From an uncultured Candidatus Izemoplasmatales bacterium (GTDB taxonomy: Bacteria > Bacillota_I > Bacilli_A > Izemoplasmatales > Hujiaoplasmataceae): 25,739 nucleotides of DNA. The notes beneath the pieces are model-generated. The model was not told the DNA's origin. It saw only the letters and a program-made list of their open reading frames with translations, and did no database searches. The DNA lies in contig CAYZPL010000001.1 in the NCBI GenBank assembly GCA_964480415.1, forward strand, positions 1 to 25,739. The letters are read 5' to 3'. Positions 3,778 to 21,477 of the stretch are shown here, one piece after another (positions within the stretch are counted from its first letter, which is position 1; each line of letters opens with the position of its first letter). The position numbers were made by a program, and so were the translations under genes.

Positions 3778-3806
3778 TTGACAACGCTTACATTATTCAG
3801 TATAAT
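3778..3806 (+). promoter_or_regulatory. Consensus sigma-A/70 promoter of the lysine fermentation operon
   Basis: TTGACA (3778-3783), 17 bp spacer, TATAAT (3801-3806). Predicted transcription start near 3813, just before the riboswitch. Confidence 0.92.
3779..3792 (+). promoter_or_regulatory. cre-like (CcpA/LacI-family) operator overlapping the -35 element
   Basis: TGACAACGCTTACA fits TGWNANCGNTNWCA at every defined position. Confidence 0.65.
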
Positions 3807-3818
3807 TACTATGTAATT

Positions 3819-3996
3819 AAATAAATCACAGAGGAGCAATTTGTTGGTATTTCGTCATTCAATATAAGATGAACCTTATTTGACTTAAGAAGGAACATGT
3901 TGCCGAAAGGGATTATTTGTTCATAAGTATTCTCTTGGGGACTGAACACAAAAGTTCAGTTACTGCCATTTTGAAAGAATGGAGAGCTGTTATATT
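3819..3996 (+). ncRNA. Lysine riboswitch (L-box) aptamer
   Basis: Conserved cores: AGAGGAGC (3830-3837), GAAGG, GCCGAA (3902-3907), ACTGC (3962-3966), GGAGAGCT (3981-3988). P2 GCAATTTGTT/AACATGTTGC. L2-L3 kissing complement ATGAAC (3869-3874) / GTTCAT (3919-3924). P4 ACTGAAC/GTTCAGT. P5 CCATT/AATGG. Located upstream of lysine catabolic genes. Confidence 0.93.
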
Positions 3997-4018
3997 TTTT
4001 AATATAGCAGCTCTTTTT
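3983..4018 (+). terminator. Riboswitch-controlled intrinsic terminator (expression platform)
   Basis: 14-bp stem AGAGCTGTTATATT (3983-3996) / AATATAGCAGCTCT (4001-4014) with one G-U pair and a TTTT loop, followed by TTTT. The 5' arm overlaps the aptamer P1 3' strand. Confidence 0.9.
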
Positions 4019-4035
4019 ATATGAAAGGAGAGAAC

Positions 4036-4692
4036 ATGAGAGCTTTTATTGACGGAAAGAAATTCAAAACATTTTTAAAAGACGGAATGAGTATCATGGT
4101 CGGCGGATTCCTAAGCAACGGATCTCCTGAACGTCTGATCGATCTTCTGATCGAGGCTGATGTCAAAGATCTTACCATAATCTGTAACGACGGCGGTTTT
4201 GAAGACAAGGGCGTAGGGAGACTGATCGTGAACAATCAAGTGAAAAAGCTTGTAGCTTCGCATATCGGCACTAATCCGACAGTCGGCACTTTGATGAATG
4301 AGAAAAAGATGGAGGTAGAACTTGTACCTCAGGGGACTTTGGCAGAAAGGATCAGAGCGTACGGAGCTGGATTAGGCGGTATTCTTACACCGACAGGACT
4401 TGATACGATGGTTGAGAAAGGCAAGAGAATCATCGAGGTTAAGGGACAAAAATATTTATTGGAAGAGGCTTTGGGAGCTGACATGGCGATCCTCGGAGGA
4501 GCCATAGCCGACAAGTACGGAAATCTGAAATATATCCAAACCATGAGGAATTTCAATCCGATAATCGCTACGGCGGCTGATATAGTCGTTTGCGAACCAA
4601 GAAAAATAATAGATGAGATAGATCCGGAGAATGTGATCACACCACATCCTTTCGTTGATTATATATTGGCAGGTGACAATAGTGACAGATAA
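4036..4692 (+). CDS. atoD: Butyrate/acetate:acetoacetate CoA-transferase, alpha subunit (AtoD/CtfA family)
   Basis: [41 protein letters not shown] motifs. Start moved from 4021 to ATG 4036 because SD AAAGGAG lies at 4024-4030. Confidence 0.92.
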
Positions 4693-5326
4693 AGAGATTA
4701 TCGCCTCAAGAATTGCGCTTGAGTTGAATGACGGGGATTTGGTCAATTTAGGAATAGGAATCCCTACCCTAGTCGCGAATTATATCCCGCAGGATAAAAA
4801 AGTCACTTTTCAATCCGAAAACGGCATCATCGGCATCGGTCCCTTGACCGATTGCGAAACGGATCTCGTAAACGCTGGCGGAATGAAGGCAACGATCGTG
4901 CCTGGAGGCGCGTTTATTGATTCATGCACATCTTTTGCATTCATCAGAGGTGGACATATTGATGTGACTGTCCTTGGCGCTTTGGAAGTCGATCAGGAAG
5001 GTTCTTTGGCTTCATGGATAATACCTGGGAAGAAAGTTCCAGGCATGGGTGGAGCGATGGATCTGGTGACCGGAGCTAAGAAGGTCATCATCGCCATGAG
5101 GCATACAAACAAAGGAATACCAAAAATACTTAAGAAATGCACCTTGCCGCTTACCGCTGCGCATCAGGTCAATCTGATCGTGACGGAGATGGCGGTGATA
5201 GAAGTCAAAAAGGACGGGATGTATTTATTGGAAGTGCATCCTGACTATACAGTGAAAGAAGTCTTGGAAGCAACCAAAGCAAAATTGATAATCAATGATG
5301 TCAAATCGATGAAAGGAGTTATATGA
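4682..5326 (+). CDS. atoA: Butyrate/acetate:acetoacetate CoA-transferase, beta subunit (AtoA/CtfB family)
   Basis: VNLGIGIPT, catalytic [14 protein letters not shown] motifs. Likely start GTG 4682 after AGGTG (the ORF track start at 4655 lacks an SD). Confidence 0.92.
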
Positions 5327-5712
5327 TGGAAACCAAATTGAGAGTGAGAATGTCGATGCATGACGCCCATTATGGAGGCAATCTGGTCGACGGAGCGAGA
5401 ATATTGGGACTTTTCGGCGATGCCGCAACGGAACTTTTAATCAGAAAAGACGGTGATGAAGGCCTGTTCAGAGCGTATGAAAAAGTTGATTTTCTAGCCC
5501 CTGTTTACGCAGGAGACTTCTTGGAGGTGGAAGCGAAAATAATCTCCGAAGGAAAAACGTCGAGAAAGATGGAATTCCATTGTTACAAAGTAATTGAAGC
5601 GCGCCCGGATATCGCGCCTAGCGCTTGCGACGTCTTGGAAGAAAAGATTCTGACAACCTACGCGATCGGAACCTGTGTGGTTCCAAAGGAGCTTCAAAGA
5701 TACAATGGATAA
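5323..5712 (+). CDS. kal: 3-aminobutyryl-CoA ammonia-lyase (hotdog fold)
   Basis: [53 protein letters not shown] signature, located in the lysine cluster. Confidence 0.88.
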
Positions 5713-6532
5713 ACTGATAATCACATGTGCCATAACCGGAGCGGAGACCACAAAGGAACATAATCCCGCTGTCCCTTATACACCCGAAGAAATGGCTGAA
5801 TCGGCATATGCGGCATATAAAGCCGGGGCTTCCATCATCCATCTGCACGCCAGAACGGAGGATGGCATACCGACACAAGATAAGGATAGATTTAGAATAA
5901 TCATCGATAAAATACTGAAAAAGTGTCCCGATGTCATAATCCAGGTTTCAACCGGCGGAGCGGTAGGCATGTCAAGAGACGAACGCCTGGATGTTCTTAA
6001 CGTAAATCCGGAGATGGCGACACTTGATTGTGGAACGCTTAATTTCGGCGGTGACGACATTTTTGTCAATACCGAGAGCGACATCAGGTATTTCGCCGAA
6101 AAGATGAACACGCTTGGTATCAGCTACGAAATGGAATGTTTTGAAAAAGGACATATAGACACTACCCTGAGATTCATAAAAAAAGGTGTGATAAAGAACC
6201 ATCTGCACTATTCCTTTGTGCTGGGAGTGAGAGGTGGAATGTCCGGAGAAGAAAGGGATTTTATCTTTATGAAAGAAAGTATCCCGAACGATGCCACATT
6301 TTCCGTCGCGGGAATCGGCAGATATGAATTTCCCCTTGCGGAACTGTCAGTCAAGCACGGCGGACATGTCAGAGTCGGACTTGAAGACAACATATATATA
6401 GAAAAAGGGATTTTGGCGAAATCAAACGCGGAACTTGTGGAAAAAGTAGTTCGAATCGCCAAGAAATACGGACGCGAGATCGCGACACCGGCAGAGACAA
6501 GAAGAATATTGGAAATGGAGAAAAGAAGATGA
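5705..6532 (+). CDS. kce: 3-keto-5-aminohexanoate cleavage enzyme (BKACE family)
   Basis: [12 protein letters not shown], metal-binding [21 protein letters not shown]. Start ATG 5705 gives the family-typical N-terminus MDKLIIT. Confidence 0.92.
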
Positions 6533-7572
6533 AGAAATTATGCAAATACGGAACACATAGGGTTTTATCTCCTGAAGGAGCTTTACCTCAAGCAGCGCAA
6601 AAGCTAGACAATAGAATGTTATGTTACGACAACGAAATACTGATAAATGTCAAAACTCTTAACATCGATTCGGCTTCATTCACACAAATCAAGGGAGCTT
6701 GTGACAAAGATCCCGAGAGAATGAAGAAAATGATAATGGAAATTGTCGAACAAAGAGGAAAAATGCAGAATCCTGTAACCGGAAGCGGTGGTATGCTTTT
6801 AGGAACAGTTGAAGAGATCGGTAAAGATCTGCATAAGGATATAAAGGTGGGAGATGAAATCGCTTCTTTGGTATCGCTATCGCTTACACCGCTAAAAATA
6901 GATAAAATACTGGAAATCCACATGGACAAGGATCAAGTAGACATTGAAGGACATGCGATATTGTTTGAAACCGGCATCTTCGCAAAAATCCCTGATGACA
7001 TGCCGCCTCATATAGCTCTTGCGGCACTTGATGTGGCCGGAGCTCCTGCACAAGTGAAAAATCTTGTGAAAAAGGATGATACGGTTCTGATTCTTGGGGC
7101 TGCCGGAAAATCCGGAGTATTGTGCGCCTATCAGGCGAGAAAGAACGCTGGTCCGAACGGAAAGATAATCGGCATCATCCATCACGACACACATAAACAC
7201 GAATTGGAAAATCTAAATGTCTGCGACCATATCATGATCGGCAACGCCAAAAATCCGATGGAGATCTATGAAAAAGTGATGGCTGTGACAAATAACGAAG
7301 GCGTAGACGTGACCATTAACGTTGTAAACGTTCCCGATACGGAGATGGCGACGATCTTGCCGACAAAACCTACAGGTACGGTTTACTTCTTCAGTATGGC
7401 GACCTCATTCACAAAAGCAGCACTTGGAGCCGAAGGCATAGCCGCTGAGGCTTTGATGATAATCGGTAACGGTTATACCAAGAACCATGCCGATATAACA
7501 CTGGACATACTAAGAGAATCCAAAGAAATGTATGATTTGTTTGCGAATAGGTATGGAAAGGAGAATCTATGA
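6529..7572 (+). CDS. kdd: L-erythro-3,5-diaminohexanoate dehydrogenase
   Basis: YGTHRV...[43 protein letters not shown]. Sits between kce and kamA. Confidence 0.9.
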
Positions 7573-8819
7573 TCATAACTAACGATAAATATTTGGAAAG
7601 AAAATCAAAATACTTTCCAAATGTTACCGAGGAACAATGGACAGACTGGCGCTGGCAGGTAAGAAACAGGATCCAAAACGCAGAAGATCTTAAAAAATAT
7701 ATGCCAATCGCTGATGCGGAAGTTGAAGAAATCAGAGAAGTGTTGTCGAAATTCAGAATGGCTGTCACGCCATATTATCTGAGTCTGATTGATCCAAGCA
7801 ATCCGAATTGCCCGATAAAAATGCAGTCTATTCCTTCAATCAACGAACTGCATATTTCCGAGTTCGATCTGGAAGACCCGCTTGCGGAAGAAGTCGATTC
7901 TCCGGTCCCGGGATTGACACATCGATATCCGGACAGAGTGCTGTTTCTGATAACGGATATGTGTTCGATGTACTGCCGCCATTGTACAAGAAGAAGATTT
8001 GCCGGACAAACCGACAAGAGAATGTCGGAAGACAGAATCGAAAAAGCGATAGAGTATATCAGAAACACAAAAGAAATCAGAGACGTATTACTTTCTGGCG
8101 GAGACGCGCTTCTTGTCAATGATGAAATTCTTGAAAGCATAATAAGAAGGTTGAGAGAAATAGAACATGTCGAGGTTATCCGCATCGGTACGAGAACCCC
8201 TGTTGTCCTACCGCAGAGGATAACCGACAATTTAGTCAACATGTTGAAAAAATACCATCCCATTTGGGTCAACACCCATTTCAACCATTATGACGAGATT
8301 ACTATTGAAAGTAAAAAAGCTATCGACAAACTGGCCGATGCAGGCATACCTTTAGGAAATCAGTCAGTGCTTTTAAAAGGCATCAACGATTCCGTCGATG
8401 TCATGAAGACATTGGTTCAGAGACTCGCCTATATCAGAGTAAGACCATATTATATCTATCAATGCGATCTATCTTTGGGAATCGAGCATTTCAGAACTCC
8501 TGTTTCCAAGGGAATCGAAATTATTGAAGGATTAAGAGGACACACTTCCGGTTATTGTGTACCTACTTTTGTGGTAGATGCACCAGGAGGCGGCGGAAAG
8601 ATCCCGATCATGCCAAACTATGTCATATCACAGGCACCGGGAAAAGTGGTTTTGAGAAACTATGAAGGAGTGATCACCACTTACAGTGAACCGTTGTGTT
8701 ATGAAAACCATACTCCTAAGAGCAAAAGCCTGGAAGGTGTCAGCGCGCTTCTATCAGGATATCAGACGGTTCTTGAACCAAAGGATCTCGAAAGAAGGAA
8801 AAGAACATTAAAAAAATAA
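7569..8819 (+). CDS. kamA: L-lysine 2,3-aminomutase (radical SAM, PLP)
   Basis: CSMYCRHC (CxxxCxxC), [39 protein letters not shown]. Confidence 0.96.
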
Positions 8820-9811
8820 TCGAGTTAATTGAAAAACACAAAGTCATAAGCGTTGTCGGCAATGCCAAGAACGCCGGCAAAACCACAGTTATCAACCATA
8901 TCATTGATAACTGTTTTGAGGCTGTGGTAGCCGTGACTTCAATTGGTCTCGACGGAGAGGAAATAGATCAGATAACATATCAGGAAAAACCGAGAATATT
9001 CGCCAAAATCGGATACATTATCGCGACTGCAAAGGATACGCTTAAATCTTTTCAAGCTGAATATGAGATATTGGAAGAGACAGATATCCGAACGTCGATT
9101 GGAACCATTGTCATAGCCAGAATCACAAAAGAAGGCAATGTGCTTGTTGCGGGACCTTCGATCATATCGGATATGCAAAGATTGATCAAGGTGATCGAGA
9201 AATACAAACCAACAAAGATTTTGATCGACGGTGCTTTCTTCAGGCATTCGACAGCCAGATTGTCTCAAGCCACGATCTTTGTTGTTGGAGCCAATCTTTC
9301 GGCTAGAATCGAAAAAGTCGTAAACAACGCGAGACTAAGCATCAAGAAATTCAGCTTACCGGAATATATTGATAAAGCAAAACTTTCCGGAAGGGAAAAA
9401 GTATGTCTAGTAAATGGAAATGAAGAAATCATTGAACTCGGTCATAGCAGTATACTCGGTAAAGGAAAAGAACTTTTTACGGAAACAAACCAAAATGTAA
9501 AATATATATTCCTACCCAAGGCATTGACAAACGATTTTGCGAAAGAACTTGTCAAGAAACGAAAAGAATATGATTTCGACATCATCGTTAATTCACCCGT
9601 GAACATTCAACTTGACGAAACCAATCTGGACAATCTCTTCAAAATCAACAGGCGGATATTTGTTTTGGATTCCGTGAATCTGGTGGCTGTATGCTATAAC
9701 CCGACTTCTCCAAGAGGGTATTCATTCGATGAAAAAGAATTTAGGGAAAAACTTTCCGAAATAACCCAGCTTGAAGTAATCAATGTAAAAGAGGAAATAC
9801 AATATGAATAA
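8807..9811 (+). CDS. kamB: KamB-like P-loop protein, putative lysine 5,6-aminomutase reactivating-factor subunit; start uncertain (ATT 8807 or ATA 8816)
   Basis: The frame is open from 8777. The P-loop-like [14 protein letters not shown] and TSIGLDGE motifs fit this family, and the P-loop lies upstream of the first GTG (8924). The gene occupies the kamA-kamD slot. Confidence 0.7.
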
Positions 9812-11360
9812 ACTGAATCTAGATAAAAACAGAATAATATCCTGCAGGCAATATGCAAAGAAGATAGCCGTCATTGTACAGAATTTCATCGATCTTCATT
9901 CGACCGTCAGCGTCGAAAGGACCGTTCTGAGACTTTTAGGAATTGACGGTGTGGATGAATTCGGCGTACCTGTGCCAAACAGAATCGTCGATGATGTCAT
10001 GAGAGACGGCGACATCAGTCTTGGAATCTCAACATATGTCGCCAGCGCGATTAAAGGCAGCGAACAAGGTTTGGATGAACTTATCAGCGATTATCTGAAC
10101 GACGAGGTTGACATCTGCGGATTTGAATTGGTGGATAAAAACGAAGTTGTGGAAATTCTAAAACCATATTTCACTAAGTATTTGGATATAATCAAGAGAA
10201 ACAAAAAAACTAGAGAAGAATTGATTGGGAAATACGGGCAGAAAAAAACCGACTTGTACGTAATCGTCGCCACAGGCAACATCGATGAAGACGTGGTCCA
10301 AGCAATAGCGGCAGCGAAAGCTGGCGCAGACATAATCGCAGTTATCAGATCGACGGGACAATCTTTGCTTGATTATGTTCCTTACGGAAAAACCACCGAA
10401 GGTTTCGGTGGCACTTTCGCCACTCAGGAAAACTTCAGAATCATGCGCAAAGCTTTGGATAAAGTCTCCGAAGAAGAAGGAAGATACATCAAATTGGTCA
10501 ATTACGCTTCCGGATTATGCATGCCAGAAATAGCTGCGATGGGTGCGATAGAAAGATTGGACGTGCTCCTTAACGACAGCATGTACGGCATCATCTTCCG
10601 CGACATCAATATGCAGAGGACATTCATCGACCAATATTTTTCCCGGTTGATAAATGCTTATTCGGGAATCATAATAAATACGGGAGAAGACAATTATCTG
10701 ACCACCAGCGACGCGATTGAGGAAGCCCACACGGTTTTGGCATCCCAGTTCATCAACGAGGCTTTCGCGAAGAAGGCTCATCTGAAAGAAGAGCTGATGG
10801 GCTTGGGTCACGCTTTCGAAATCAATCCCGATGTCGAAAACGGTTTTTTGTTTGAAATTGCACAAGCCGAGATGGCTAGAGAAATATTTCCAAATGCACC
10901 GTTAAAATACATGCCCCCGACGAAGCATATAAATGGTAATATTTTCCGAGCCTACCAACAGAATGTGATGTTCAACATAGCGACCACTTTGACCGACCAG
11001 TCCATTCATCTTCTTGGTATGATGACGGAGGCGATCCATACGCCGTTTTTGTCAGACAGATACATGGCGATCAAGAACGCGCAGATGATTCAGACCTCGA
11101 TGAAATCATTGGGAGATGAAATTGAATTCAAAGAAAACGGCCTGATCCAGACGAGAGCCAAAGAGGTCTTGGTCGAAGCGGAGAAATTATTGAAGCAGAT
11201 TTCCTCTGACGGACTGTTCAAGACATTGGAAATGGGTATCTTCGCCAATACAAAAAGACTGGTTGATGGCGGAAAAGGATTGACAGGCGTCTTTAAAAAG
11301 CACGATAAATATGTTAATGTAGTGTTGGATAGAATGGAGGAATCGTTCTATGAAGATTAA
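9804..11360 (+). CDS. kamD: D-lysine/beta-lysine 5,6-aminomutase, alpha subunit
   Basis: STVSVERTVLRLLGIDG, YVIVATGNI, AVIRSTGQSLLDYVPYG, NYASGLCMPEIA, KYMPPTKH. Confidence 0.95.
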   Translation: MNKLNLDKNRIISCRQYAKKIAVIVQNFIDLHSTVSVERTVLRLLGIDGVDEFGVPVPNRIVDDVMRDGDISLGISTYVASAIKGSEQGLDELISDYLNDEVDICGFELVDKNEVVEILKPYFTKYLDIIKRNKKTREELIGKYGQKKTDLYVIVATGNIDEDVVQAIAAAKAGADIIAVIRSTGQSLLDYVPYGKTTEGFGGTFATQENFRIMRKALDKVSEEEGRYIKLVNYASGLCMPEIAAMGAIERLDVLLNDSMYGIIFRDINMQRTFIDQYFSRLINAYSGIIINTGEDNYLTTSDAIEEAHTVLASQFINEAFAKKAHLKEELMGLGHAFEINPDVENGFLFEIAQAEMAREIFPNAPLKYMPPTKHINGNIFRAYQQNVMFNIATTLTDQSIHLLGMMTEAIHTPFLSDRYMAIKNAQMIQTSMKSLGDEIEFKENGLIQTRAKEVLVEAEKLLKQISSDGLFKTLEMGIFANTKRLVDGGKGLTGVFKKHDKYVNVVLDRMEESFYED

Positions 11361-12078
11361 ACCATATGGAGATACTCTGAATGACGGGAAAGTCCAATTA
11401 AGTTTCACTCTTCCGGTAGAAATCGGAGCCAAAGGTATCGCCGCCGCGAAAGAACTTGCGAAATCCATGGGCTTGATCGATCCAAGCGTGGTCCACTCAG
11501 AGAAAATCGGTGACAGATTCAGCTTTTATATTGTATATGGTTCAATCACCCATTCAGTGGATTTGGATAAAATCCATGTCGAAGAAATAAAGACAAAACA
11601 TTTGTCAAGAAAAGAGATAGAATCCCTTATAAAGGAAAAGCTGAATAGAGATATTGTTTTCGTCGGTGCTTCGACAGGAACCGACGCTCATACCGTCGGC
11701 ATCGACGCTATCATGAACATGAAAGGCTACGCCGGACATTACGGGCTCGAAAGATATGAGGGAATCAAGGCATATAATCTGGGTTCCCAAGTTCTGAACG
11801 AAGATTTTGTCAGAGAAGCGATAGATAAAAAGGCGGATGTGCTTCTTGTATCGCAGACGGTGACGCAAAAAGACGTTCACATTAAAAACCTCGTGGAGTT
11901 GGTCGAATTGCTTGAAGCCGAAGGAATCAGAGACAAAATGCTTTTGATTGTCGGAGGAGCCAGAATCACTCACGAGTTGGCCAAAGAACTTGGTTATGAT
12001 GCCGGATTCGGTCCAGGTAGTTTCGCTGAAGATGTAGCATCCTTCGCAGTTAATGAATTGATCAAAAAACATGAATGA
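11350..12078 (+). CDS. kamE: D-lysine/beta-lysine 5,6-aminomutase, beta subunit (B12-binding)
   Basis: KPYGDTLNDGKVQLSFTLP, DXHXXG motif TDAHTVG, PLP-site region MNMKGYAGHYGLE. Confidence 0.95.
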   Translation: MKIKPYGDTLNDGKVQLSFTLPVEIGAKGIAAAKELAKSMGLIDPSVVHSEKIGDRFSFYIVYGSITHSVDLDKIHVEEIKTKHLSRKEIESLIKEKLNRDIVFVGASTGTDAHTVGIDAIMNMKGYAGHYGLERYEGIKAYNLGSQVLNEDFVREAIDKKADVLLVSQTVTQKDVHIKNLVELVELLEAEGIRDKMLLIVGGARITHELAKELGYDAGFGPGSFAEDVASFAVNELIKKHE

Positions 12079-12094
12079 CCCGGGAGGGGATAAA

Positions 12095-12619
12095 ATGTAT
12101 ATAAAAAAGACGGATCAAATTGTCACGAAAAACGGAGATACCGGAGAATCAAAAGATTTCGGGAATGAAACATACAAGAAAAACGACATCATATTCGAAG
12201 CCATGGGATCGATTGACGAACTTAGTTCTTTTTTGGGTTTGGCATATCATTTCACGAACTATGAATATATCAAAGAGATCCAAAAAAAGTTACAGATCAT
12301 CAACGCTAGAGTAGCCGTTTCGCCTAAGTCCGATTTGGCCAATAAGATCGACAGGGTCGAAGAACACGACGTGGTTTTCCTTGAGTCGGAGATCCAGAAC
12401 ATTCTCGACCAGAAACCGATTGAGGCGAGGTTTGTTCTTCCTGGTAGTGAAAGAACGCAGAACGGAGCGTTTTTTGACTATGCGAGAACAATAGCCAGGA
12501 AGTGTGAAAGAAGGCTGGTTGAGTACTTGGAAAAACACAAAAGAACCGATCTGAAAATCGAATTGAAATACTTGAACAGATTGAGTGATTATCTATTTGT
12601 TCTGGCAAATATTCTCTAG
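12095..12619 (+). CDS. PduO-type ATP:cob(I)alamin adenosyltransferase
   Basis: IVTKNGDTG, GSIDELSSFLG, FVLPG, ARTIARKCERR, YLNRLSDYLF. Likely start ATG 12095 after SD GGGAGGGG (12082-12089); 12071 is an alternative. Confidence 0.9.
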   Translation: MYIKKTDQIVTKNGDTGESKDFGNETYKKNDIIFEAMGSIDELSSFLGLAYHFTNYEYIKEIQKKLQIINARVAVSPKSDLANKIDRVEEHDVVFLESEIQNILDQKPIEARFVLPGSERTQNGAFFDYARTIARKCERRLVEYLEKHKRTDLKIELKYLNRLSDYLFVLANIL

Positions 12620-12639: not shown

Positions 12640-12681
12640 TTGAATTTTTAACTTTAAAAGTTATAATGACTATGTTATAAT
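12640..12681 (+). promoter_or_regulatory. Putative tandem promoters of the glutamate fermentation operon
   Basis: TTGAAT (12640-12645), 16 bp spacer, TATAAT (12662-12667). A second extended -10, TG-T-TATAAT, lies at 12673-12681. Confidence 0.65.
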
Positions 12682-12692
12682 TATACAAGTGA

Positions 12693-12706
12693 TAAAAACG
12701 CTTACA
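12693..12706 (+). promoter_or_regulatory. Second cre-like operator, between promoter and SD of glmS
   Basis: TAAAAACGCTTACA has one mismatch to TGWNANCGNTNWCA. Its core AACGCTTACA is identical to 3783-3792. Confidence 0.55.
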
Positions 12707-12724
12707 AATAATAAGGAGATAATA

Positions 12725-13129
12725 TTGAAATCGATTGTAATTGGCGTGATAGGTTCCGATGTTCACGCTGTTGGAAACAAGATTATTGAATATACTCTAC
12801 ATAACGCTGGATACAACGTTATAAACATCGGAGTATTATCTTCACAGGAGGATTTTATCAATGCGGCGATCGAGACAAACGCCGATTTGATTATGGTATC
12901 TTCACTCTACGGTCATGGTGAGATTGATTGCAGAGGAATGAGGGACAAATGCATAGAAGCCGGCATAGGAGACATTCCACTTTACGTCGGCGGCAACATT
13001 GTGGTTGGAAAACAGGATTTCTCAGAAGTCAAAGAAAGATTCATGGCGATGGGATTCAACAGGATCTATCCACCCGGGACACCTATAGATGAAGCACTAT
13101 CAGATTTAAAAGAGGACTTGGGAGAGTAA
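12725..13129 (+). CDS. glmS: Glutamate (methylaspartate) mutase, B12-binding small subunit (GlmS/MutS/MamA)
   Basis: [17 protein letters not shown] (DXHXXG), [21 protein letters not shown]. Likely start TTG 12725, 6 nt after SD AAGGAG (12713-12718). Confidence 0.95.
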
Positions 13130-13131
13130 GC

Positions 13132-14514
13132 ATGGCAAACTATTTGCTGATTGATTTTGGTTCCACTTTCACAAAACTTTGTGCAGTTGATTCAGAAGCT
13201 TCCGATATTTTAGCGACAGCTTCTCATTTTACGACTGTCGAAACCGACATTAGCATAGGATATCATAGTGCCCTTAAGAGCATCTATGAAAGCATAGGAA
13301 AAGAGATAAAATTTGATCAAGTAATTGCTTGTTCATCAGCTGCTGGCGGCCTTAAAATGGCCGCTATTGGTCTAGTTGAGGAGCTAACTGTCGAGGCTGC
13401 GAAACGTGTTTGCCTCGGTGCGGGAGCGAAAGTCGACCTGGTATTCTCACATCATATAAACACTAGTGAAGTAAATCAGATAATAGATAAGAAAATCGAT
13501 ATCATTCTGCTTGCCGGAGGTTCAGACGGTGGCAATTCCGAATGTGTCATTTTTAATGCGGAAATGTTGGGTAAAATGGGCATAAAGAAACCGATTGTCT
13601 TCGCCGGTAACAAATCCGCTCAGGACGAAATCAAAGAGATTTTCGATAAGTACGAGATGGACGGATACATCTGCGACAACGTGATGCCGAAAATCAACGC
13701 ACTCAATATCGATAGCGCAAGAGAACAGATCAGAGAAATATTCCTTAAAAAGATCATCGCAGCCAAAGGCATCAAAAAGATAGAAGAGGAAATCGATGAA
13801 GTTGTCTTGCCGACACCGAAAGCGGTACTTGATGCGACATTGCTTTTATCAAGAGGATATTTGGATGAACCTGGTTGGGGCGATATCGTCGTCCTTGACA
13901 TTGGCGGAGCCACAACGGATCTATATTCGATATGCAACGCTTCAAAACGGAGTGACGTGTTGATACACGGGTTGGAAGAACCTTTCGCAAAAAGGACCGT
14001 CGAAGGAGACCTGGGTATGAGATATTCCGCTCCGGGAATTATCAAGGCTTTGACCAGACAGGAAATAGAATTCATAAACAAGGAAAAAGGCGTCGATATC
14101 CAAGCCGAAGTAGCTAAAAGATACATCGATGTGGCATCTCTTCCTGAGAATCAGCATGATGAATTCATCGATCAGCTATTAGCGGAGATGTGCGCATATA
14201 GAGCGATGAACAGACACTGCGGCAAGATTGAGAAAGTGCTGACTCCGATGGGTACGATGTACAATCAGATTGGAAAAGACTTAACGGATATAAGATACGT
14301 GATCGGCAGTGGTGGCGTAACGATCAATTCCAAACATCAAAAAGACATCTTGATAAAAACCACCAACATTTTGCACAACGAAACCGAACTGAGGCCACTT
14401 CATCCGCATTTCATGATAGACACGAGATACATCATGGCGGCTATGGGATTGCTTTCTCAGAAAGAACCGCTATTGGCGCTAAGACTAATGAAGAAGTACA
14501 TAAAAAGAATTTGA
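13132..14514 (+). CDS. glmL: GlmL/MutL glutamate mutase reactivating-factor-like ATPase (ASKHA fold)
   Basis: [51 protein letters not shown]. Lies between glmS and glmE. Confidence 0.92.
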
Positions 14515-14524
14515 GGAATATGAT

Positions 14525-15982
14525 ATGGAGCTAAGAAACAAAAAACTTACCGAGGAAGAATTTCTGCAAATAAGAAAACAAGTTTTGACAAGTTGGAAAA
14601 CAGGTAACGAAAAAGAGTTGGACTTGGACAAGGCAGTAGATTATTTGAGAAACGTACCTGAGCATAAGAATTTCGCCATCAAACTGAATAAAGCTAAAGC
14701 TGAAGGCTTGACTCTTGTCCAGCCTAGAGCCGGCGTGCCGGAACTGGACGAGCATATAAAGTTATTACAATATCTGGAAAAATGTGGTGCTGATTTCGTT
14801 CCATCTACCATAGACAGCTATACCAGACAGAACAGATATCAGGAAGCCGAAAAAGGATTGGAAGAAAGCATCGCCAAACACAGGGCGCTTCTCAATGGAT
14901 TTCCGGCTGTCAACTATGGCGTCAAAATGTGTAAAAAAGTCTATGAATCAGTAAATGTTCCAATCGAAGCAAGACATGGAACACCCGATGCGAGACTATT
15001 GTCGGAAATCATCCACGCAGCGGGATGGACTTCAAATGAAGGTGGAGGGATTTCCTATAATATCCCCTACGCCAAATCGGTTCCGCTAGAAGTATCCATC
15101 AAGAATTGGCAATACTGCGATCGTCTTGTCGGATATTACGAAGAAAGAGGAATAAAGATCAACCGCGAACCTTTCGGACCGCTTACCGGCACTTTGGTTC
15201 CGCCATCAATTTCCAATACAATAATGATAATCGAAGCGCTTTTGGCAGCTGAACAAGGTGTCAAAAACATTACGGTCGGGTATGGAATGGGCGGCAATCT
15301 GATTCAGGACGTAGCTGCCATCAATGCGCTTTATGACCAGACGAACCGCTATTTGAAGAAATACGGGTACAAAGACATGGAAGTAACAACCGTATTCCAT
15401 CAGTGGATGGGAGGATTCCCGACGGATGAAGCTGAAGCAATGGCTTTGATATCCTTCAGTTCGACTGTCGCGGCTTTATCGAAAGCGACAAAACTGATTA
15501 CCAAATCACCACAGGAATCAGTTGGAATTCCGACAAAGGAAGCAAACGGATTGGGTATAAAAGCTTCTAAATTCATCGTCAATATGTTGAAAGATCAAAC
15601 AATGTCGGACAGCAAAGATCTGGAAGAAGAAATAGCACAGATCAAAAAAGAAGTGGATTGCTTGATGGACGCCATTATGAAAGTCGGCGAAGGCGATTTG
15701 GCAATTGGTACAGTGAAAGCTTTCAAACAAGGACTTATTGACGTTCCGTTCGCGCCAAGCACTTGCAACGCAGGCAGGATTCTGCCGGCAAGAGACAACG
15801 ACGGACGCATAAGAATTCTTGAATTCGGCAACTTGGGATTTAGTGAAGAAATCAAAGAATTCCACCATAAGAAAATCGCAGAAAGAGCAAAATCGGAAAA
15901 CAGAGCGATATCTTTCCAATTGACAGTGGATGATGTTTACTCGGTTAGCAAAGGAAAATTAATTGGAAGACCACAAAAATAA
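14525..15982 (+). CDS. glmE: Glutamate (methylaspartate) mutase, epsilon subunit
   Basis: [59 protein letters not shown]. Confidence 0.96.
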
Positions 15983-15991
15983 GGTGAAAAT

Positions 15992-17236
15992 ATGAAAATC
16001 AAGGACATAATCTTAACAAAATCTTACACCGGATTCTTTTTCGATGATCAGAAAGCGATAAAATCCGGGGCAGTCTCAGACGGCATGATGTATATCGGTG
16101 AACCGGTCATACCGGGATTCTCGTCAATCCGTCAAAAAGGGGAGGCTATCTCAATCCAGATCATGCTGGATGATGGGTCTGTCGGCTACGGAGATTGCGC
16201 AGCGGTACAATATTCAGGTACCGGAGGCAGGGATCCTTTGTTCCTTGCGGACGAATACATCCCTTTCATCGAAAATGAAATCAAACCCCGACTGATTGGC
16301 GAGGACTTAAGTAATTTCAAACCGTTAGCCGAGAAATATGACAAGATGAAAATCAAAGGCAAAAGACTTCATACTGCTATAAGATATGGCCTCACACAAG
16401 CGATTTTGAGCGCTGTAGCCGTAAATAACAGGTTGACTATGGCGGAAGTCGTGAGAAAAGAATATAATATTGTCGAGGAAGTATATCAACCCGTTCCTGT
16501 ATTCACACAAAGTGGCGACGACAGATACACAAACGTCGACAAGATGATTTTGAAGGAAGCAGATGTATTGCCGCATGCCTTGATCAACAACGTCAATGAT
16601 AAACTCGGACAAAACGGCGAGATACTTCTTAATTATGTAAAATGGCTCAGTAACAGAATTATGAAATACAAACCGAATGAAAAATATCATCCGGTACTGC
16701 ACATAGATGTTTACGGTACAATCGGCATGGCGTTCGATAATGATATCGATAGGATCGTCGATTACCTCATAGAACTTGAGAAAGCCGCCGAACCTTTCAC
16801 ACTTCGTATCGAAGGCCCGATCGACGGCGGAAACAAAGAAGACACAATCTATTATTTGAAAACAATAACAAAAAAACTCAACGACAGATATTCGAAATTG
16901 GAAATCGTCGCCGATGAATGGTGTAACACTCTTGAAGACATCATCGATTTCGCAGACGCGGGCGCAGGACACATGTTACAGATCAAAACCCCTGACCTAG
17001 GCGGAGTGAACAATGTCATCGAGGCGATACAATATTGTAATAAGACCGGAGTGGGTAGTTATTGCGGAGGAACTTGCAACGAGACGAACATCTCGGCGGA
17101 AGTGACCACCAACATAGCGATCGCCTGCAAGGCGACCCAATGTCTGGCAAAGCCGGGCATGGGAGTAGATGAAGGATTCATGATTGTCAAGAATGTGATG
17201 AACAGAGTATTAGCAATAGCGAATCAAAGGAGATAA
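15992..17236 (+). CDS. mal: Methylaspartate ammonia-lyase
   Basis: GFFFDDQKAI, GDCAAVQYSGTGGRDPLF, QSGDDRY, LPHALINN, catalytic QIKTPDLGG, GGTCNET. Confidence 0.96.
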   Translation: MKIKDIILTKSYTGFFFDDQKAIKSGAVSDGMMYIGEPVIPGFSSIRQKGEAISIQIMLDDGSVGYGDCAAVQYSGTGGRDPLFLADEYIPFIENEIKPRLIGEDLSNFKPLAEKYDKMKIKGKRLHTAIRYGLTQAILSAVAVNNRLTMAEVVRKEYNIVEEVYQPVPVFTQSGDDRYTNVDKMILKEADVLPHALINNVNDKLGQNGEILLNYVKWLSNRIMKYKPNEKYHPVLHIDVYGTIGMAFDNDIDRIVDYLIELEKAAEPFTLRIEGPIDGGNKEDTIYYLKTITKKLNDRYSKLEIVADEWCNTLEDIIDFADAGAGHMLQIKTPDLGGVNNVIEAIQYCNKTGVGSYCGGTCNETNISAEVTTNIAIACKATQCLAKPGMGVDEGFMIVKNVMNRVLAIANQRR

Positions 17237-17241
17237 AGGAT

Positions 17242-17496
17242 ATGATAGCGACCGCAGGAACCAAAGAATCAAACGATTGTTTTGTGACTGTAAAACCGGC
17301 TGATAAGAGAAAAGTGGTCATCAACAGTGTTGTTGGAGCGTTTTTCTATGACCAGATCAAAGAGACTGTCGAGAAAACATTGGATGAATTGAATGCAGAC
17401 AACGTCGAAATTGTAATTGAAGATAAAGGCGCATTGGATTATACAATCAAATCCAGAGTCATAAGCGCTGTGAAAAGGATGAGGAGCGATGTTTAG
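17242..17496 (+). CDS. citD: Citrate/citramalate lyase acyl carrier protein (gamma subunit)
   Basis: AGTKESND carries the prosthetic-group serine; DKGALDYTIKSR also conserved. Confidence 0.9.
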   Translation: MIATAGTKESNDCFVTVKPADKRKVVINSVVGAFFYDQIKETVEKTLDELNADNVEIVIEDKGALDYTIKSRVISAVKRMRSDV

Positions 17497-18343
17497 GTCT
17501 CTCCTTTTTATTCCTGGAAACAATCCTTCGATGATCCAGAATGCGGACATCTTTTTAAGCGATGCCATCATTTTCGATCTGGAAGATTCGGTGAGCATTT
17601 CCGAAAAGGACAACGCCAGAAATCTCATCCTCAATTTCCTATTGACGAAACAATCATTCGCGCAGACGATCATTCTAAGAGTCAATCCTGTGGATACATC
17701 CTTCTTCAAAGATGATTTGAAACTCCTTTCTTCAAAAAGAATAGATTATGTGCTTTTGCCGAAAGCGACAAAGGAGAATCTTGATATTCTCAATGAAGAA
17801 CTTTTCGCATATGAAAAAGAAAACGACCTGAAAGAGACCAAAACAATCGCTTTGGTAGAACAGGCAAAATCGATAATAGAAGTAGAAACAATCGCAGAGA
17901 AACCAAGAGTGGAGGCTCTGTTCCTGGGTGCTGAGGATTTGTGCAACGATCTGGAGATCGAAAGAACCGGCAAGGGAAAAGAGATCCTGTTCGCAAGATC
18001 TAAAGTGATCTATGCGGCCGCAGCAAACAACATCATCTCAATTGATACGCCTTACACAGACATATATGACGAAGAAGGTCTTAGAAAAGACGCGCTGAGA
18101 GCGTATGCGCTGGGAATGAAGGCGAAAGCGTGCATCCATCCCAATCAGTTGGAAATTGTCAACGAGGTGTTTTCACCTAAAAAAGCTCAGATCGAATGGG
18201 CTAAGAAGGTTTTAGTGGCTTATGAAGAGAATTTGAAAATAGGAAAAGGCGCATTCAAAGTCGATGGCAAGATGATTGATAAACCGATAATCGAGAAAGC
18301 GCAGAAAATAATCGACAAAGCCAAGAAATACCAATTATTGTAG
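17489..18343 (+). CDS. citE: Citryl/citramalyl-ACP lyase (beta subunit, HpcH/CitE family)
   Basis: RSLLFIPGNNP, IFDLEDSV, LGAEDL, IDTPYTD, KACIHPNQ, DGKMIDKP. Confidence 0.92.
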   Translation: MFRSLLFIPGNNPSMIQNADIFLSDAIIFDLEDSVSISEKDNARNLILNFLLTKQSFAQTIILRVNPVDTSFFKDDLKLLSSKRIDYVLLPKATKENLDILNEELFAYEKENDLKETKTIALVEQAKSIIEVETIAEKPRVEALFLGAEDLCNDLEIERTGKGKEILFARSKVIYAAAANNIISIDTPYTDIYDEEGLRKDALRAYALGMKAKACIHPNQLEIVNEVFSPKKAQIEWAKKVLVAYEENLKIGKGAFKVDGKMIDKPIIEKAQKIIDKAKKYQLL

Positions 18344-18350
18344 GTGTAGT

Positions 18351-19868
18351 ATGAAAAACGGAGTCGGAAGAAACATTCCTGATGACTTGAGACCATTTGT
18401 CTCAAGCGATGATTACAAAACAAAAGAGCGGAGATTGATTCCGAAGAAAAAAAGACAGTCAAAAACTGTTTTTTTCAATGATCTCGCATCCGCTTTCGAT
18501 CATTTCGGAATATCGTCCGGCAGTACGATATCATTCCATCATCATCTACGTAATGGAGACCATGTTCTTGAGGATGTCTGTGAAATCATTGATCAAAGGA
18601 ACCTAAGAAACATCCATCTTGCTCCAAGTTCGATTTTTCCAAGTTACACAAATTTGGTGAAACTGATCGAGAATCAGAATGTTACCGACATTCATACAAA
18701 TTATGTGAATGGTCCGGTAGCGAAAGCCATCAGCCTAGGAAAATTGGCTGGCAAACTGGTAATGGACACACACGGAGGCAGAGCCAGAGCGATTGAAAGC
18801 GGCGATCTCAAGATCGACTATGCATTTCTGGCGTGTCCGGTTGTGGACAAGCAGGGCAACGGTACTGGCGCCTTTGGTAAAAGCGCATGTGGAACTTTGG
18901 GTTATGCTGTAAGTGATCTCGAATATGCAGGTAAAGTGATACTAGTGACGGATTCCTTAGTTGACAAACTTGATGAATTCCAGCTGAATGGCGAATATGT
19001 GGACGCGGTTGTCGTCCTTGATTCGATTGGTGATTCCGAAGGCATCATTTCGGGTACGACGCAACTGACGAAAGATCCGATCGGCCTGAAAATAGCCAAG
19101 GATTGTTCAATGCTACTAGATGATTTGGGTATGATAGAAAACGGATTTTCCATGCAGACGGGAGCCGGAAAAACATCATTGGCAGTCGTGAAATATGTCA
19201 AGGAACTCATGGAAAGAAAAGGAGTCAAAGGTTCTTTCGGTTCAGGCGGAATAACGAAGAGTTATGTAGAAATGCTCGAACAGGGATTGTTCGACAAACT
19301 ATACGATGTACAATGCTTTGATTTGGACGCGGTAGAATCATTCCACAAGAACAAGAACCATTTGGCGATGTCAGCTTCAGAGTATGGTAATCCATTCGAA
19401 AAGGATCCCGTTTGCGACAGACTCTCTTTCGTCATTTTGGGAGCTGCGGAAATAGATCTTGATTTCAATGTGAATGTAACGACGGATTCGTTGGGTAATC
19501 TTATCGGTGGAAGCGGCGGACACGCCGATATTGCGAAAGGTGCTGACTTGACAATAATAATTTCCCCATTGATCAAATCGAGAATACCGCTCATCAAGGA
19601 TGAAGTCATGACAGTGACCACTCCGGGAAGCGACATTGACATTCTGATCACCGAAAGAGGGATTGCGATAAATCCGTTGAGAAAGGATTTATTGAAAAAA
19701 CTGCAAAACAGGCCTCTGCCTGTATATACGATAAAGGAACTATATGATTTGGCGCACAGTATTACAGGTAAACCAAGAAAGATAGAAACAACCGATGAAA
19801 TAGTCGGCTTCGTTGAATACAGGGATGGTACAATCATCGATTGCATCTATAAAACGAAGGTATTCTAA
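18351..19868 (+). CDS. citF: Citrate/citramalate:acetyl-ACP transferase (alpha subunit)
   Basis: ISFHHHLRNGD, THGGRARAI, CGTLGYA, QTGAG, GGSGGHAD, VTTPG, VEYRDGTIID. Confidence 0.92.
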   Translation: MKNGVGRNIPDDLRPFVSSDDYKTKERRLIPKKKRQSKTVFFNDLASAFDHFGISSGSTISFHHHLRNGDHVLEDVCEIIDQRNLRNIHLAPSSIFPSYTNLVKLIENQNVTDIHTNYVNGPVAKAISLGKLAGKLVMDTHGGRARAIESGDLKIDYAFLACPVVDKQGNGTGAFGKSACGTLGYAVSDLEYAGKVILVTDSLVDKLDEFQLNGEYVDAVVVLDSIGDSEGIISGTTQLTKDPIGLKIAKDCSMLLDDLGMIENGFSMQTGAGKTSLAVVKYVKELMERKGVKGSFGSGGITKSYVEMLEQGLFDKLYDVQCFDLDAVESFHKNKNHLAMSASEYGNPFEKDPVCDRLSFVILGAAEIDLDFNVNVTTDSLGNLIGGSGGHADIAKGADLTIIISPLIKSRIPLIKDEVMTVTTPGSDIDILITERGIAINPLRKDLLKKLQNRPLPVYTIKELYDLAHSITGKPRKIETTDEIVGFVEYRDGTIIDCIYKTKVF

Positions 19869-21130
19869 TGGAATCTATCAAAGAAAAAATCCTGAGTTCA
19901 AGAGAAAGAAGAAGATGGTTATATATTGAAGACAAACTTGTAGGTGACGTTATAATGGTTTGTCTGAAAGCGAATATTCCCGGAGACAACAAAAACATCC
20001 AGGAAGCGTATATGCTTTTGGGACTGTTTTACAATCTTGTAGTCAAGGATTCTAGTGAGCATATATTCATCGATTCTGACGACGGGCCGCTTTATTTCTT
20101 TTTGTTCGAACATAAAGATGGCGAAAAGCTGAAGAAAAGGATGATGGAAATCGAAGATGCACATGAGCTTGGCAGGTTCATCGACATCGATGTGTATCAG
20201 AAAGACCATGAATTTTCTCGGGAAACTCCAAGAAAATGTTATATATGCGATGACATAGCATTCAACTGCATAGTATCCAAAAAGCATACACTCGAGGAAA
20301 CACTGTCGGTAATCCGCGAAAAAGTCAACGGATACTTTTACAATGAAATCCAAAAGATGGTATTTGACAGTATAAAACTGGAACTGGATCTTGATCCGAA
20401 ATTCGGACTTGTTACTCCGAAGACAAACGGATCGCATCCGGACATGGATTACGAGCTGATGCTAAAAGCCGCGAAAACGATTCTTCCTTTCATAATGGAA
20501 ATGTACGATCTTGCCAGTTCAAGTGATGAAATAGAAAGCATTTTTCCTGCAATCAGGAAAATTGGCATTAAAGCAGAAAACAAAATGTATGAAACCACCA
20601 ACAATGTCAATGCGTATAAGGGATTGATATTCCACATGGGTCTGTTTGTTTCAGCTTTCGCATTTTTGCTTTATCATCACGATTACGGATGGGATGTACC
20701 GGATCTGGCTTCGTATCTGGTCAGCGGCATACTTGATGAATTAGATCAGCCAGGAGATTCCTACGGTCACGAGGCATATGAAAAATATGGCATACTCGGA
20801 GCGAGAGGAGAAGCCGCGCTCGGGTTTACACATGTCTTGGAAGCATTGGAATATCTCAGTGATTTTTCCGTCGAAAAGCGCATCGAGACGCTCGCATATC
20901 TGATATCCGAGGTAGAGGATACCAATCTGTTGAAGAGATCCGGGTCTTATGATGCATATATTGAGAACAAAGAAAAATTCTTTGCTTTGGTCAAATACAA
21001 AAAATCGCTGGTTGAAGAGCTTGACGAGTACTGCAGAGATAACAATCTCAGTTTCGGCGGAAGCGCCGATCTGTTGATTGTAACAATTTTCATGAAAAAA
21101 TTGAATACATTTTACAAGTTATATGAATAG
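19868..21130 (+). CDS. citXG: Fused CitX-CitG (holo-ACP synthase plus triphosphoribosyl-dephospho-CoA synthase)
   Basis: N-terminal CitX-like region (KANIPG, GRFIDIDV, RKCYIC...C...KKH) and C-terminal CitG-like region (PKFGLVTP...GSHPDMD, YKGLIF, GARGEA, LSFGGSADLL). Confidence 0.85.
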   Translation: MESIKEKILSSRERRRWLYIEDKLVGDVIMVCLKANIPGDNKNIQEAYMLLGLFYNLVVKDSSEHIFIDSDDGPLYFFLFEHKDGEKLKKRMMEIEDAHELGRFIDIDVYQKDHEFSRETPRKCYICDDIAFNCIVSKKHTLEETLSVIREKVNGYFYNEIQKMVFDSIKLELDLDPKFGLVTPKTNGSHPDMDYELMLKAAKTILPFIMEMYDLASSSDEIESIFPAIRKIGIKAENKMYETTNNVNAYKGLIFHMGLFVSAFAFLLYHHDYGWDVPDLASYLVSGILDELDQPGDSYGHEAYEKYGILGARGEAALGFTHVLEALEYLSDFSVEKRIETLAYLISEVEDTNLLKRSGSYDAYIENKEKFFALVKYKKSLVEELDEYCRDNNLSFGGSADLLIVTIFMKKLNTFYKLYE

Positions 21131-21259: not shown

Positions 21260-21335
21260 GGAGGTTTAGCTCAGCTGGGAGAGCATCTGCCTTACAAGCA
21301 GAGGGTCGGCGGTTCGAGCCCGTCAACCTCCACCA
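21260..21335 (+). tRNA. tRNA-Val (anticodon TAC)
   Basis: Acceptor GGAGGTT/AACCTCC, anticodon arm TCTGC-CTTACAA-GCAGA, GGTTCGAG, CCA encoded, 76 nt. Confidence 0.97.
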
Positions 21336-21336
21336 T

Positions 21337-21413
<77 letters not shown>

Positions 21414-21442: not shown

Positions 21443-21477
21443 ATAATGGCGTACGGAATGTACGCTATTATTTTTTT
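21443..21477 (+). terminator. Intrinsic terminator of the tRNA pair
   Basis: 12-bp stem ATAATGGCGTAC (21443-21454) / GTACGCTATTAT (21460-21471) with one G-U pair, loop GGAAT, then TTTTTT. Confidence 0.85.

Follow-up and report, generated by a model that had tools for sequence, protein, structure and literature searches.

In a 25,739-nucleotide stretch of DNA from an uncultured Candidatus Izemoplasmatales bacterium (assembly GCA_964480415.1, contig CAYZPL010000001.1, positions 1 to 25,739 of the forward strand; hereafter the window), a lysine riboswitch precedes a ten-gene lysine-fermentation operon. As judged from the sequence and from folding models, this leader is very probably a natural lysine-activated transcriptional ON riboswitch. 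Computation supports the identity of the aptamer, the terminator hairpin, the overlap between them, the conservation and covariation and, through family models, the functions of the genes. Lysine binding, termination, read-through and the binding of CcpA are steps that we infer from these. The elements on which the reading depends are the following.

3821-3997, plus strand: lysine riboswitch aptamer (L box, RF00168) with helices P1-P5, from Rfam, covariation and fold
3826-3831, plus strand: P1 5' strand UCACAG with the conserved core ACAG at 3828-3831, from the Rfam alignment
3869-3874, plus strand: L2 loop ATGAAC, kissing partner of L3, with which it covaries
3919-3924, plus strand: L3 loop GTTCAT, kissing partner of L2, with which it covaries
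3983-3992, plus strand: shared segment made of J5/1 (AGAG, 3983-3986) and the P1 3' strand (CUGUUA, 3987-3992), from the Rfam alignment compared with the hairpin fold
3982-4022, plus strand: predicted intrinsic terminator with a stem of 3982/3983-3996 and 4001-4014/4015, a UUUU loop at 3997-4000 and a U-tract from 4014/4015 (UUUUUAUAU)

The aptamer was identified by a search of the window against Rfam, in which RF00168 matched at 3821-3997 on the plus strand over its full length (model positions 1-182 of 182), with 79.3 bits against a gathering score of 30 and E = 1.8e-19; the only other matches were two tRNAs. The minimum-energy fold of 3821-3997 alone was the canonical P1-P5 structure. In the Rfam alignment, P1 joins UCACAG to CUGUUA with one C.U mismatch. 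The nucleotides that form the lysine pocket are, in Bacillus subtilis numbering, G40-C110, G111, A112 and G144.U170 (PMC3384330), and by motif position these map to G3834-C3904, G3905, A3906 and G3937.U3964.

To score covariation, 17 aptamers were aligned with a covariance model, R1, built from seven homologues, and the consensus structure was assessed together with the L2-L3 helix. Standard pairs occupied 92.3% of the cells in this alignment, which was fitted to the model, compared with 38-48% when the partners were slid by one to three columns. Changes on both sides were seen at 42 of the 53 pairs, and none of 500 shuffles reached the observed values. The L2-L3 kissing helix serves as an independent check, because it is absent from the covariance model used for alignment; 88.5% of its cells were paired and five of its six pairs had changed on both sides (for example GAAC/GUUC, GGAC/GUCC and AGAU/AUCU). 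The C3829-G3989 pair of P1 also covaries, being CG in 14 sequences and UA in three. None of the 17 sequences departs from the pocket G-C pair (columns 14-100) or the G.U pair (columns 136-163), and the GCCGAA motif that holds G111 and A112 is kept in 16, the remaining sequence (locus L014; related loci are given L numbers here) differing at the A after A112.

The hairpin that follows has a stem of 14-16 bp with a free energy of -19.8 to -20.1 kcal/mol (z = -6.8 to -8.2), a value matched by none of 200 dinucleotide shuffles. Its tail reads UUUU(U)AUAU, or UUUUAUAU when the stem is taken as 14 bp. Positions 3983-3992 have a dual role: they supply J5/1 and the P1 3' strand in the aptamer and the GC-rich base of the 5' arm in the hairpin, so that G3989, for instance, has C3829 as its partner in P1 and C4008 in the terminator. 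Because J5/1 and the P1 3' strand together form the terminator 5' arm, aptamer and terminator are mutually exclusive. Only about 25 nt lie between the aptamer and the ribosome-binding site, which excludes a third helix, and they hold no third complementary segment. When the shared strand was blocked in a constrained fold, neither the hairpin nor any other structure remained.

These results agree closely with an initial annotation of this DNA, which had been made from the sequence without database searches. It had proposed a complete L-box aptamer with its core motifs and P2-P5 (here a match to the full RF00168 model, with P1-P5 in the aptamer-only fold, and a clear score in the RF00168 search that it had named as a check), an ATGAAC/GTTCAT kissing pair (here covarying across the 17 homologues), and a 14-bp terminator with a U-tract at 3983-4014 (here 14-16 bp; -19.8 kcal/mol, z = -8.2). 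Its 5' arm was said to be drawn from the ligand-pocket segment and the P1 3' strand, as found, and no separate antiterminator was thought to be needed, which the short gap bears out. The description of P1 as weak with a 4-bp core is likewise correct, because conservation is limited to ACAG/CUGU.

Relatives were collected by a Kdd-alignment scan of representative genomes, which gave 80 loci, followed by a search with R1 upstream of kdd. The Kdd proteins closest to that of the window, with 84-87% identity, are encoded in Izemoplasma/Izimaplasma, Mycoplasmatota and "Bacilli" metagenome-assembled genomes (MAGs). Of the 80 loci, 16 carry an R1 aptamer on the kdd strand and upstream of that gene, comprising 12 Mycoplasmatota/Bacilli-type MAGs and four Clostridia (Vallitalea maricola, Clostridium sp. 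19966, a Christensenella MAG and Flavonifractor porci); a regular expression for the core motifs, superseded by R1, had found only six related loci besides the window. Rfam confirmed five of the R1 positives and, in eight R1-negative loci, likewise found no aptamer, so that R1 had missed none there. L018, L051 and L024 were not reported by Rfam at its gathering threshold, although R1 gives them 104-123 bits; either speed filters or divergence is responsible. No lysine riboswitch was detected within 10 kb upstream in the kdd loci of Bacteroidales, Spirochaetes, Marinitoga, Cetobacterium and many Clostridia (L022-L080), and in such loci the lysine pathway must be regulated otherwise.

The direct overlap is present in 13 of the 16 aptamer-bearing loci, where GGAGNGC and the P1 3' strand open a hairpin (z from -4.6 to -9.7), after which come a U-tract and, next, a ribosome-binding site. 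Within the stem, the variable base of GGAGNGC forms an A-U pair in most loci and a C-G pair in L055, L010 and L014 (also in L073, which is outside the 13), and position 5 of the stem is an A-U pair in L010 and G-C elsewhere. The distal stems vary from locus to locus with compensation (UAUAUU/AAUAUA, UGUCU/AGACA, UAUGUU/AACAUA, UUUAUGUC/GACAUGAA and UAUGCC/GGCAUGA). The equivalents of G3989, C3829 and C4008 are G, C and C in most sequences and change together to A, U and U in L013 and L073, as predicted for two mutually exclusive pairings that are both under selection.

Expression of the operon appears to start from a promoter directly upstream of the aptamer, and the first gene follows closely after the terminator.

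3778-3806, plus strand: sigma-70-type promoter, TTGACA-17-TATAAT, with 12 of 12 consensus positions and a -35/-10 arrangement kept in relatives
3779-3792, no strand assigned (TGTAAGCGTTGTCA on the minus strand): putative cre-type (CcpA/LacI-family) operator, overlapping the -35 box
4025-4038, plus strand: ribosome-binding site AAGGAGAG at 4025-4032 and probable start codon ATG 4036 of the first gene, from sequence and a frame check

The initial annotation had placed a consensus promoter here, and all 12 hexamer positions agree with it; from the promoter spacing, transcription is predicted to start near 3813. In Bacillota, the cre operators through which CcpA exerts carbon catabolite repression have the consensus TGWAANCGNTNWCA. 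The site at 3779-3792 is the sole exact match to this consensus in the window, where 0.06 would be expected by chance, and nine related loci likewise carry an exact match, 35-50 nt ahead of their aptamers; the site in L051 differs by a one-base insertion. The likeness to known cre/CcpA operators thus extends to the exact consensus, the repressing position over the -35 box and the catabolic operon downstream, whereas this site, known from its sequence, could belong to another LacI-family regulator. Neither CcpA nor HPr(Ser-P) is encoded within the window. The operator probably adds repression by preferred carbon sources, which would act through CcpA or another LacI-family protein. The ribosome-binding site lies outside the hairpin and is not sequestered. 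For the first gene, ATG 4036 is the most likely start; ATG 4021 is disfavoured because it is not preceded by a Shine-Dalgarno sequence.

The ten genes downstream were all named by Pfam and NCBIfam, in agreement with the catabolic operon of ten genes that had been read from the open reading frames.

4036-5326, plus strand: acetate/3-oxoacid CoA-transferase subunits A (4036-4692) and B (4655-5326), from Pfam CoA_trans and NCBIfam TIGR02429 and TIGR02428
5323-5712, plus strand: kal, 3-aminobutyryl-CoA ammonia lyase (NCBIfam NF052388, 185.9 bits, above cut-off)
5675-6532, plus strand: kce, 3-keto-5-aminohexanoate cleavage enzyme (NCBIfam NF052387, 424.3 bits, above cut-off)
6529-7572, plus strand: kdd, 3,5-diaminohexanoate dehydrogenase (NCBIfam NF052381, above cut-off)
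7569-8819, plus strand: kamA, lysine 2,3-aminomutase (NCBIfam TIGR03820, above cut-off)
about 8807-9811, plus strand: kamB-type reactivase subunit (NCBIfam NF052386)
9804-11360, plus strand: kamD, lysine 5,6-aminomutase alpha subunit (NCBIfam NF052384)
11350-12078, plus strand: kamE, lysine 5,6-aminomutase beta subunit (NCBIfam NF052385)
12071-12619, plus strand: PduO-type corrinoid adenosyltransferase (NCBIfam TIGR00636)

The NCBIfam equivalog cut-offs were exceeded by KAL, KCE, KDD, lysine 2,3-aminomutase, KamB and the alpha and beta subunits of lysine 5,6-aminomutase, and Pfam agrees. By these assignments, the ten genes make up the complete route of lysine fermentation to acetate and butyrate through 3-keto-5-aminohexanoate, so that the genes under control would consume the ligand of the riboswitch. 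In relatives, an additional MaoC-type gene comes first. The frame of the kamB-type gene is open from 8777, and its Walker-A motif is encoded ahead of the first canonical start, GTG 8924. The gene probably starts at a non-canonical ATT, ATA or ATC near 8807-8830; its counterpart in L003 has a TTG start at the equivalent place.

The growing leader was folded from 3813 in a length scan of minimum-energy structures. The P1 core persisted at all 3' ends in the range 3991-4007, and the terminator took its place from 4009 on. For the full leader, the fold with the terminator has -56.4 kcal/mol compared with -41.6 kcal/mol when P1 is forced; therefore, the default would be termination, and, since the terminator state is more stable by about 15 kcal/mol, the decision must be kinetic and co-transcriptional. 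In the proposed mechanism, transcription would begin near 3813 from the consensus promoter, and the L-box aptamer would fold once the P1 3' strand (3987-3992) has emerged. Without lysine, P1, with its 4-5 bp, would lose J5/1 and its own 3' strand to the complementary segment 4001-4015, which is transcribed about 10-25 nt later, and the completed terminator of 14-16 bp would release RNA polymerase near 4016-4020, in the U-tract. Bound lysine would instead lock P1, J5/1 and the five-way junction and so withhold the terminator 5' arm, resulting in read-through into atoD-atoA-kal-kce-kdd-kamA-kamB-kamD-kamE-ATR. This would require that the ligand-bound junction resist strand invasion over the approximately 20 nt that are synthesised after P1 is complete and before the 3' arm is. 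The cre-type operator over the -35 box would probably impose additional repression by preferred carbon sources.

Several points weigh against this model. The P1 duplex alone has about -2.4 kcal/mol and the terminator roughly -20 kcal/mol, and we assume that bound lysine would hold so weak a helix long enough; the secondary-structure energies used here take no account of contributions from tertiary structure or from the ligand. In addition, the U-tract (UUUUUAUAU) is interrupted as well as short. A generic terminator scan of the window did not list the hairpin, because the scan greedily lengthens the stem into the U-tract through two G.U pairs and so leaves too few T in the tail. Finally, the searchable literature yielded no experiment that tests a natural lysine ON riboswitch, although absence there is not proof.

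The first of these points also bears on the possibility that the hairpin is a constitutive attenuator or an RNA-stability element and that the aptamer is a non-switching relic, with control exerted mainly by the promoter and the cre-type operator. A terminator far more stable than P1 would fit such an arrangement, as would the conserved operator over the -35 box, which makes protein-mediated control probable. However, a relic would not be expected to be under purifying and compensatory selection as strong as that seen in the 17 loci, nor to have a terminator arm that follows the changes of the aptamer strand, and it would have lost its pocket nucleotides, its kissing loop and its exact overlap with the terminator. 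We therefore regard a relic aptamer as very unlikely.

It is also highly improbable that the aptamer, with the same ON logic, senses an intermediate or analogue of the pathway such as beta-lysine. This idea draws on L018 (6839-7014), L019 (6845-7023) and L051 (6803-6980), in which UGAG replaces AGAG in J5/1 and the terminator overlap is retained. R1 gives these three 94-123 bits; Rfam gives L019 46.3 bits and leaves L018 and L051 unreported at the gathering threshold. The window itself, in contrast, fits the L-lysine consensus at all pocket positions and core motifs, with 79.3 bits, and the substrate of the pathway is lysine. The GAUGAGC sequence of the three loci was considered as a variant of new specificity and mostly rejected: the change from GGAG to GAUG is mostly a compensated P5 pair (C-G to U-A), and J5/1 differs only by A to U at its first base.

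Control at the level of translation or mRNA decay instead of transcription termination has precedents, since some lysine riboswitches, such as that of Escherichia coli lysC, affect translation and RNase E access (PMC5584792). For the present leader it was rejected on structural grounds and is most improbable: the ribosome-binding site at 4025-4032 is downstream of the hairpin and unpaired in local folds, and a U-tract, the hallmark of intrinsic termination in low-GC Bacillota, follows the hairpin in the window and in 13 relatives. A conventional OFF switch, in which lysine would promote termination and an unrecognised antiterminator would form without lysine, is barely credible even though most lysine riboswitches are OFF switches (PMC2258182, PMC3384330), and was likewise rejected on structural grounds, for the folded aptamer and the terminator cannot coexist on the shared J5/1 and P1 3' strand, the gap of about 25 nt between aptamer and ribosome-binding site has no third complementary segment, the controlled genes consume lysine, and the overlap is conserved in 13 relatives.

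The lysine-activated reading has forerunners among published predictions. Barrick and Breaker (2007, PMC2258182) count lysine among the ON classes, in which pieces of the terminator are buried in the aptamer, and cite Rodionov et al. (2003) for lysine; Mukherjee and Sengupta (2017, PMC5584792) describe lysine riboswitches upstream of kal/kce in Clostridium sticklandii, Fusobacterium nucleatum and Thermoanaerobacter and call the regulation positive. As described in PMC2258182 and PMC5584792, these predicted switches share with ours the aptamer class, the pathway from lysine to acetate and butyrate, and the ON logic. They differ in lineage, the Izemoplasmatales-like Mycoplasmatota/Bacilli being unlisted in those papers, and in heading kal alone, kal-kce or a pspF-type regulator, whereas the leader in the window precedes the CoA-transferase genes and the whole ten-gene pathway. 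The promoter in the window differs from theirs, compared by published description, in its cre-type operator. The initial annotation had rightly noted that activating lysine riboswitches had been proposed before (Rodionov 2003 as cited by PMC2258182; PMC5584792). Its description of the architecture as unusually minimal, however, was overstated: a terminator piece buried in the ligand-bound aptamer is the ordinary ON transcriptional layout (PMC2258182), and both the concept and the direct overlap had been published as predictions. The window thus provides a fresh and clean example and not a new type of switch; what is new is the lineage, the single riboswitch leader for an entire pathway and the cre-type operator over the -35 box. 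No lysine ON riboswitch in Izemoplasma was found in the searchable literature, where absence is not proof. What is already known of riboswitch mechanism is left unchanged, and the finding holds no conceptual surprise.

Among ON riboswitches of other classes, the B. subtilis pbuE and gcvT leaders exemplify those for adenine and glycine, respectively. The shared principle is that the 3' strand of the aptamer doubles as the terminator 5' arm, with no separate antiterminator and a kinetic, co-transcriptional decision. Aptamer class and ligand differ, and the lysine aptamer is much larger (~170 nt), with only J5/1 and P1 overlapping the terminator. Adenine and glycine are named together with lysine as ON classes (PMC2258182). 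Comparison with the OFF switches of B. subtilis lysC and Thermotoga maritima asd (PMC3384330, PMC3082890) shows the same five-helix junction, L2-L3 kissing loop, pocket nucleotides and use of an intrinsic terminator. Those leaders have an extra antiterminator helix, so that lysine causes termination, and a P1 longer than the helix with a 4-bp conserved core found here; the logic is inverted in the window because its terminator pairs directly with the P1 3' strand. Lysine-ON riboswitches have also been engineered, and they resemble the present one in that lysine activates expression through an L-box aptamer. In accounts of this work (PMC10974012; Zhou and Zeng 2015, as cited in bioRxiv 10.64898/2026.06.17.733018), the natural lysine riboswitches studied experimentally are described as repressors from which ON versions had to be evolved. 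The engineered forms are laboratory-selected from OFF switches and work in E. coli or Corynebacterium contexts, whereas that of the window would be a natural, conserved transcriptional design.

Directly downstream of the ten genes, at 12689-21130, lies a cluster for glutamate fermentation by the methylaspartate pathway, with genes for glutamate mutase S, MutL, mutase E, methylaspartate ammonia-lyase, a citrate-lyase-like acyl carrier protein, beta and alpha subunits, and CitX/CitG; the synteny is the same in L003. A second cre-like site with one mismatch, TGTAAGCGTTTTTA at 12693-12706, closely follows promoter-like hexamers (12640-12681) in the interval that separates the tenth gene from the glutamate-mutase genes; it is identical and in the same relative position in L003 and L004. 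No terminator was evident after the tenth gene, and no convincing plus-strand terminator was found before the glutamate cluster. The citrate-lyase-like genes are followed by two adjacent tRNA genes at 21260-21410 (68.4 and 76.0 bits), beyond which a 13-bp terminator-like hairpin occupies 21443-21471. Since no terminator is evident and the second cre-like site is conserved, the lysine transcript may reach the glutamate-fermentation genes. A broader reading, for which we can claim only tentative standing, would combine these features into a two-input gate, in which a sugar-repressed promoter and lysine-permitted elongation together deliver a transcript into glutamate fermentation, coordinating the control of amino-acid fermentation in wall-less Izemoplasmatales-like bacteria and providing the first natural lysine-ON switch suited to biochemistry.

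Some related loci depart from the simple layout. In L013 (V. maricola, 597-690), the hairpin that overlaps P1 has a 17-nt loop complementary to a second terminator, which comes after it; with the aptamer strand blocked, an 18-bp antiterminator became the minimum-energy fold. This leader resembles a relay form of the ON switch with two terminators. A relay of this kind (anti-antiterminator, antiterminator and second terminator) was considered for the Clostridia loci, but constrained folding supported it for L013 and not for L036 or L073. In L036 (Clostridium sp. 19966, 8564-8668), the downstream terminator was unrelieved in constrained folds, and in L073 (F. porci, 8960-9084) the sequence CAUGAAGCGCUAU, which holds the P5 3' strand, J5/1 and the P1 3' strand, is duplicated, each copy opening its own terminator. 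The Acholeplasmataceae contig of L055 carries a cobalamin riboswitch (RF00174, 89.2 bits) at 1551-1720, about 3 kb upstream of its lysine riboswitch; the lysine pathway is B12-dependent.

The leader described here would make an attractive test system. It is compact, at ~205 nt from transcription start to terminator, with a consensus promoter and a single hairpin, and 13 close natural variants already span a range of stem length and stability. It offers a route to study how a weak P1 might out-compete a terminator of roughly -20 kcal/mol, and could become a lysine-inducible genetic part. If the two-input reading were true, this would be the first natural lysine-ON switch suited both to direct biochemistry and to use as such a part. 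For the organisms themselves, the switch would indicate that uncultured Izemoplasmatales-like bacteria turn on lysine fermentation when free lysine is available, probably also under carbon catabolite repression.

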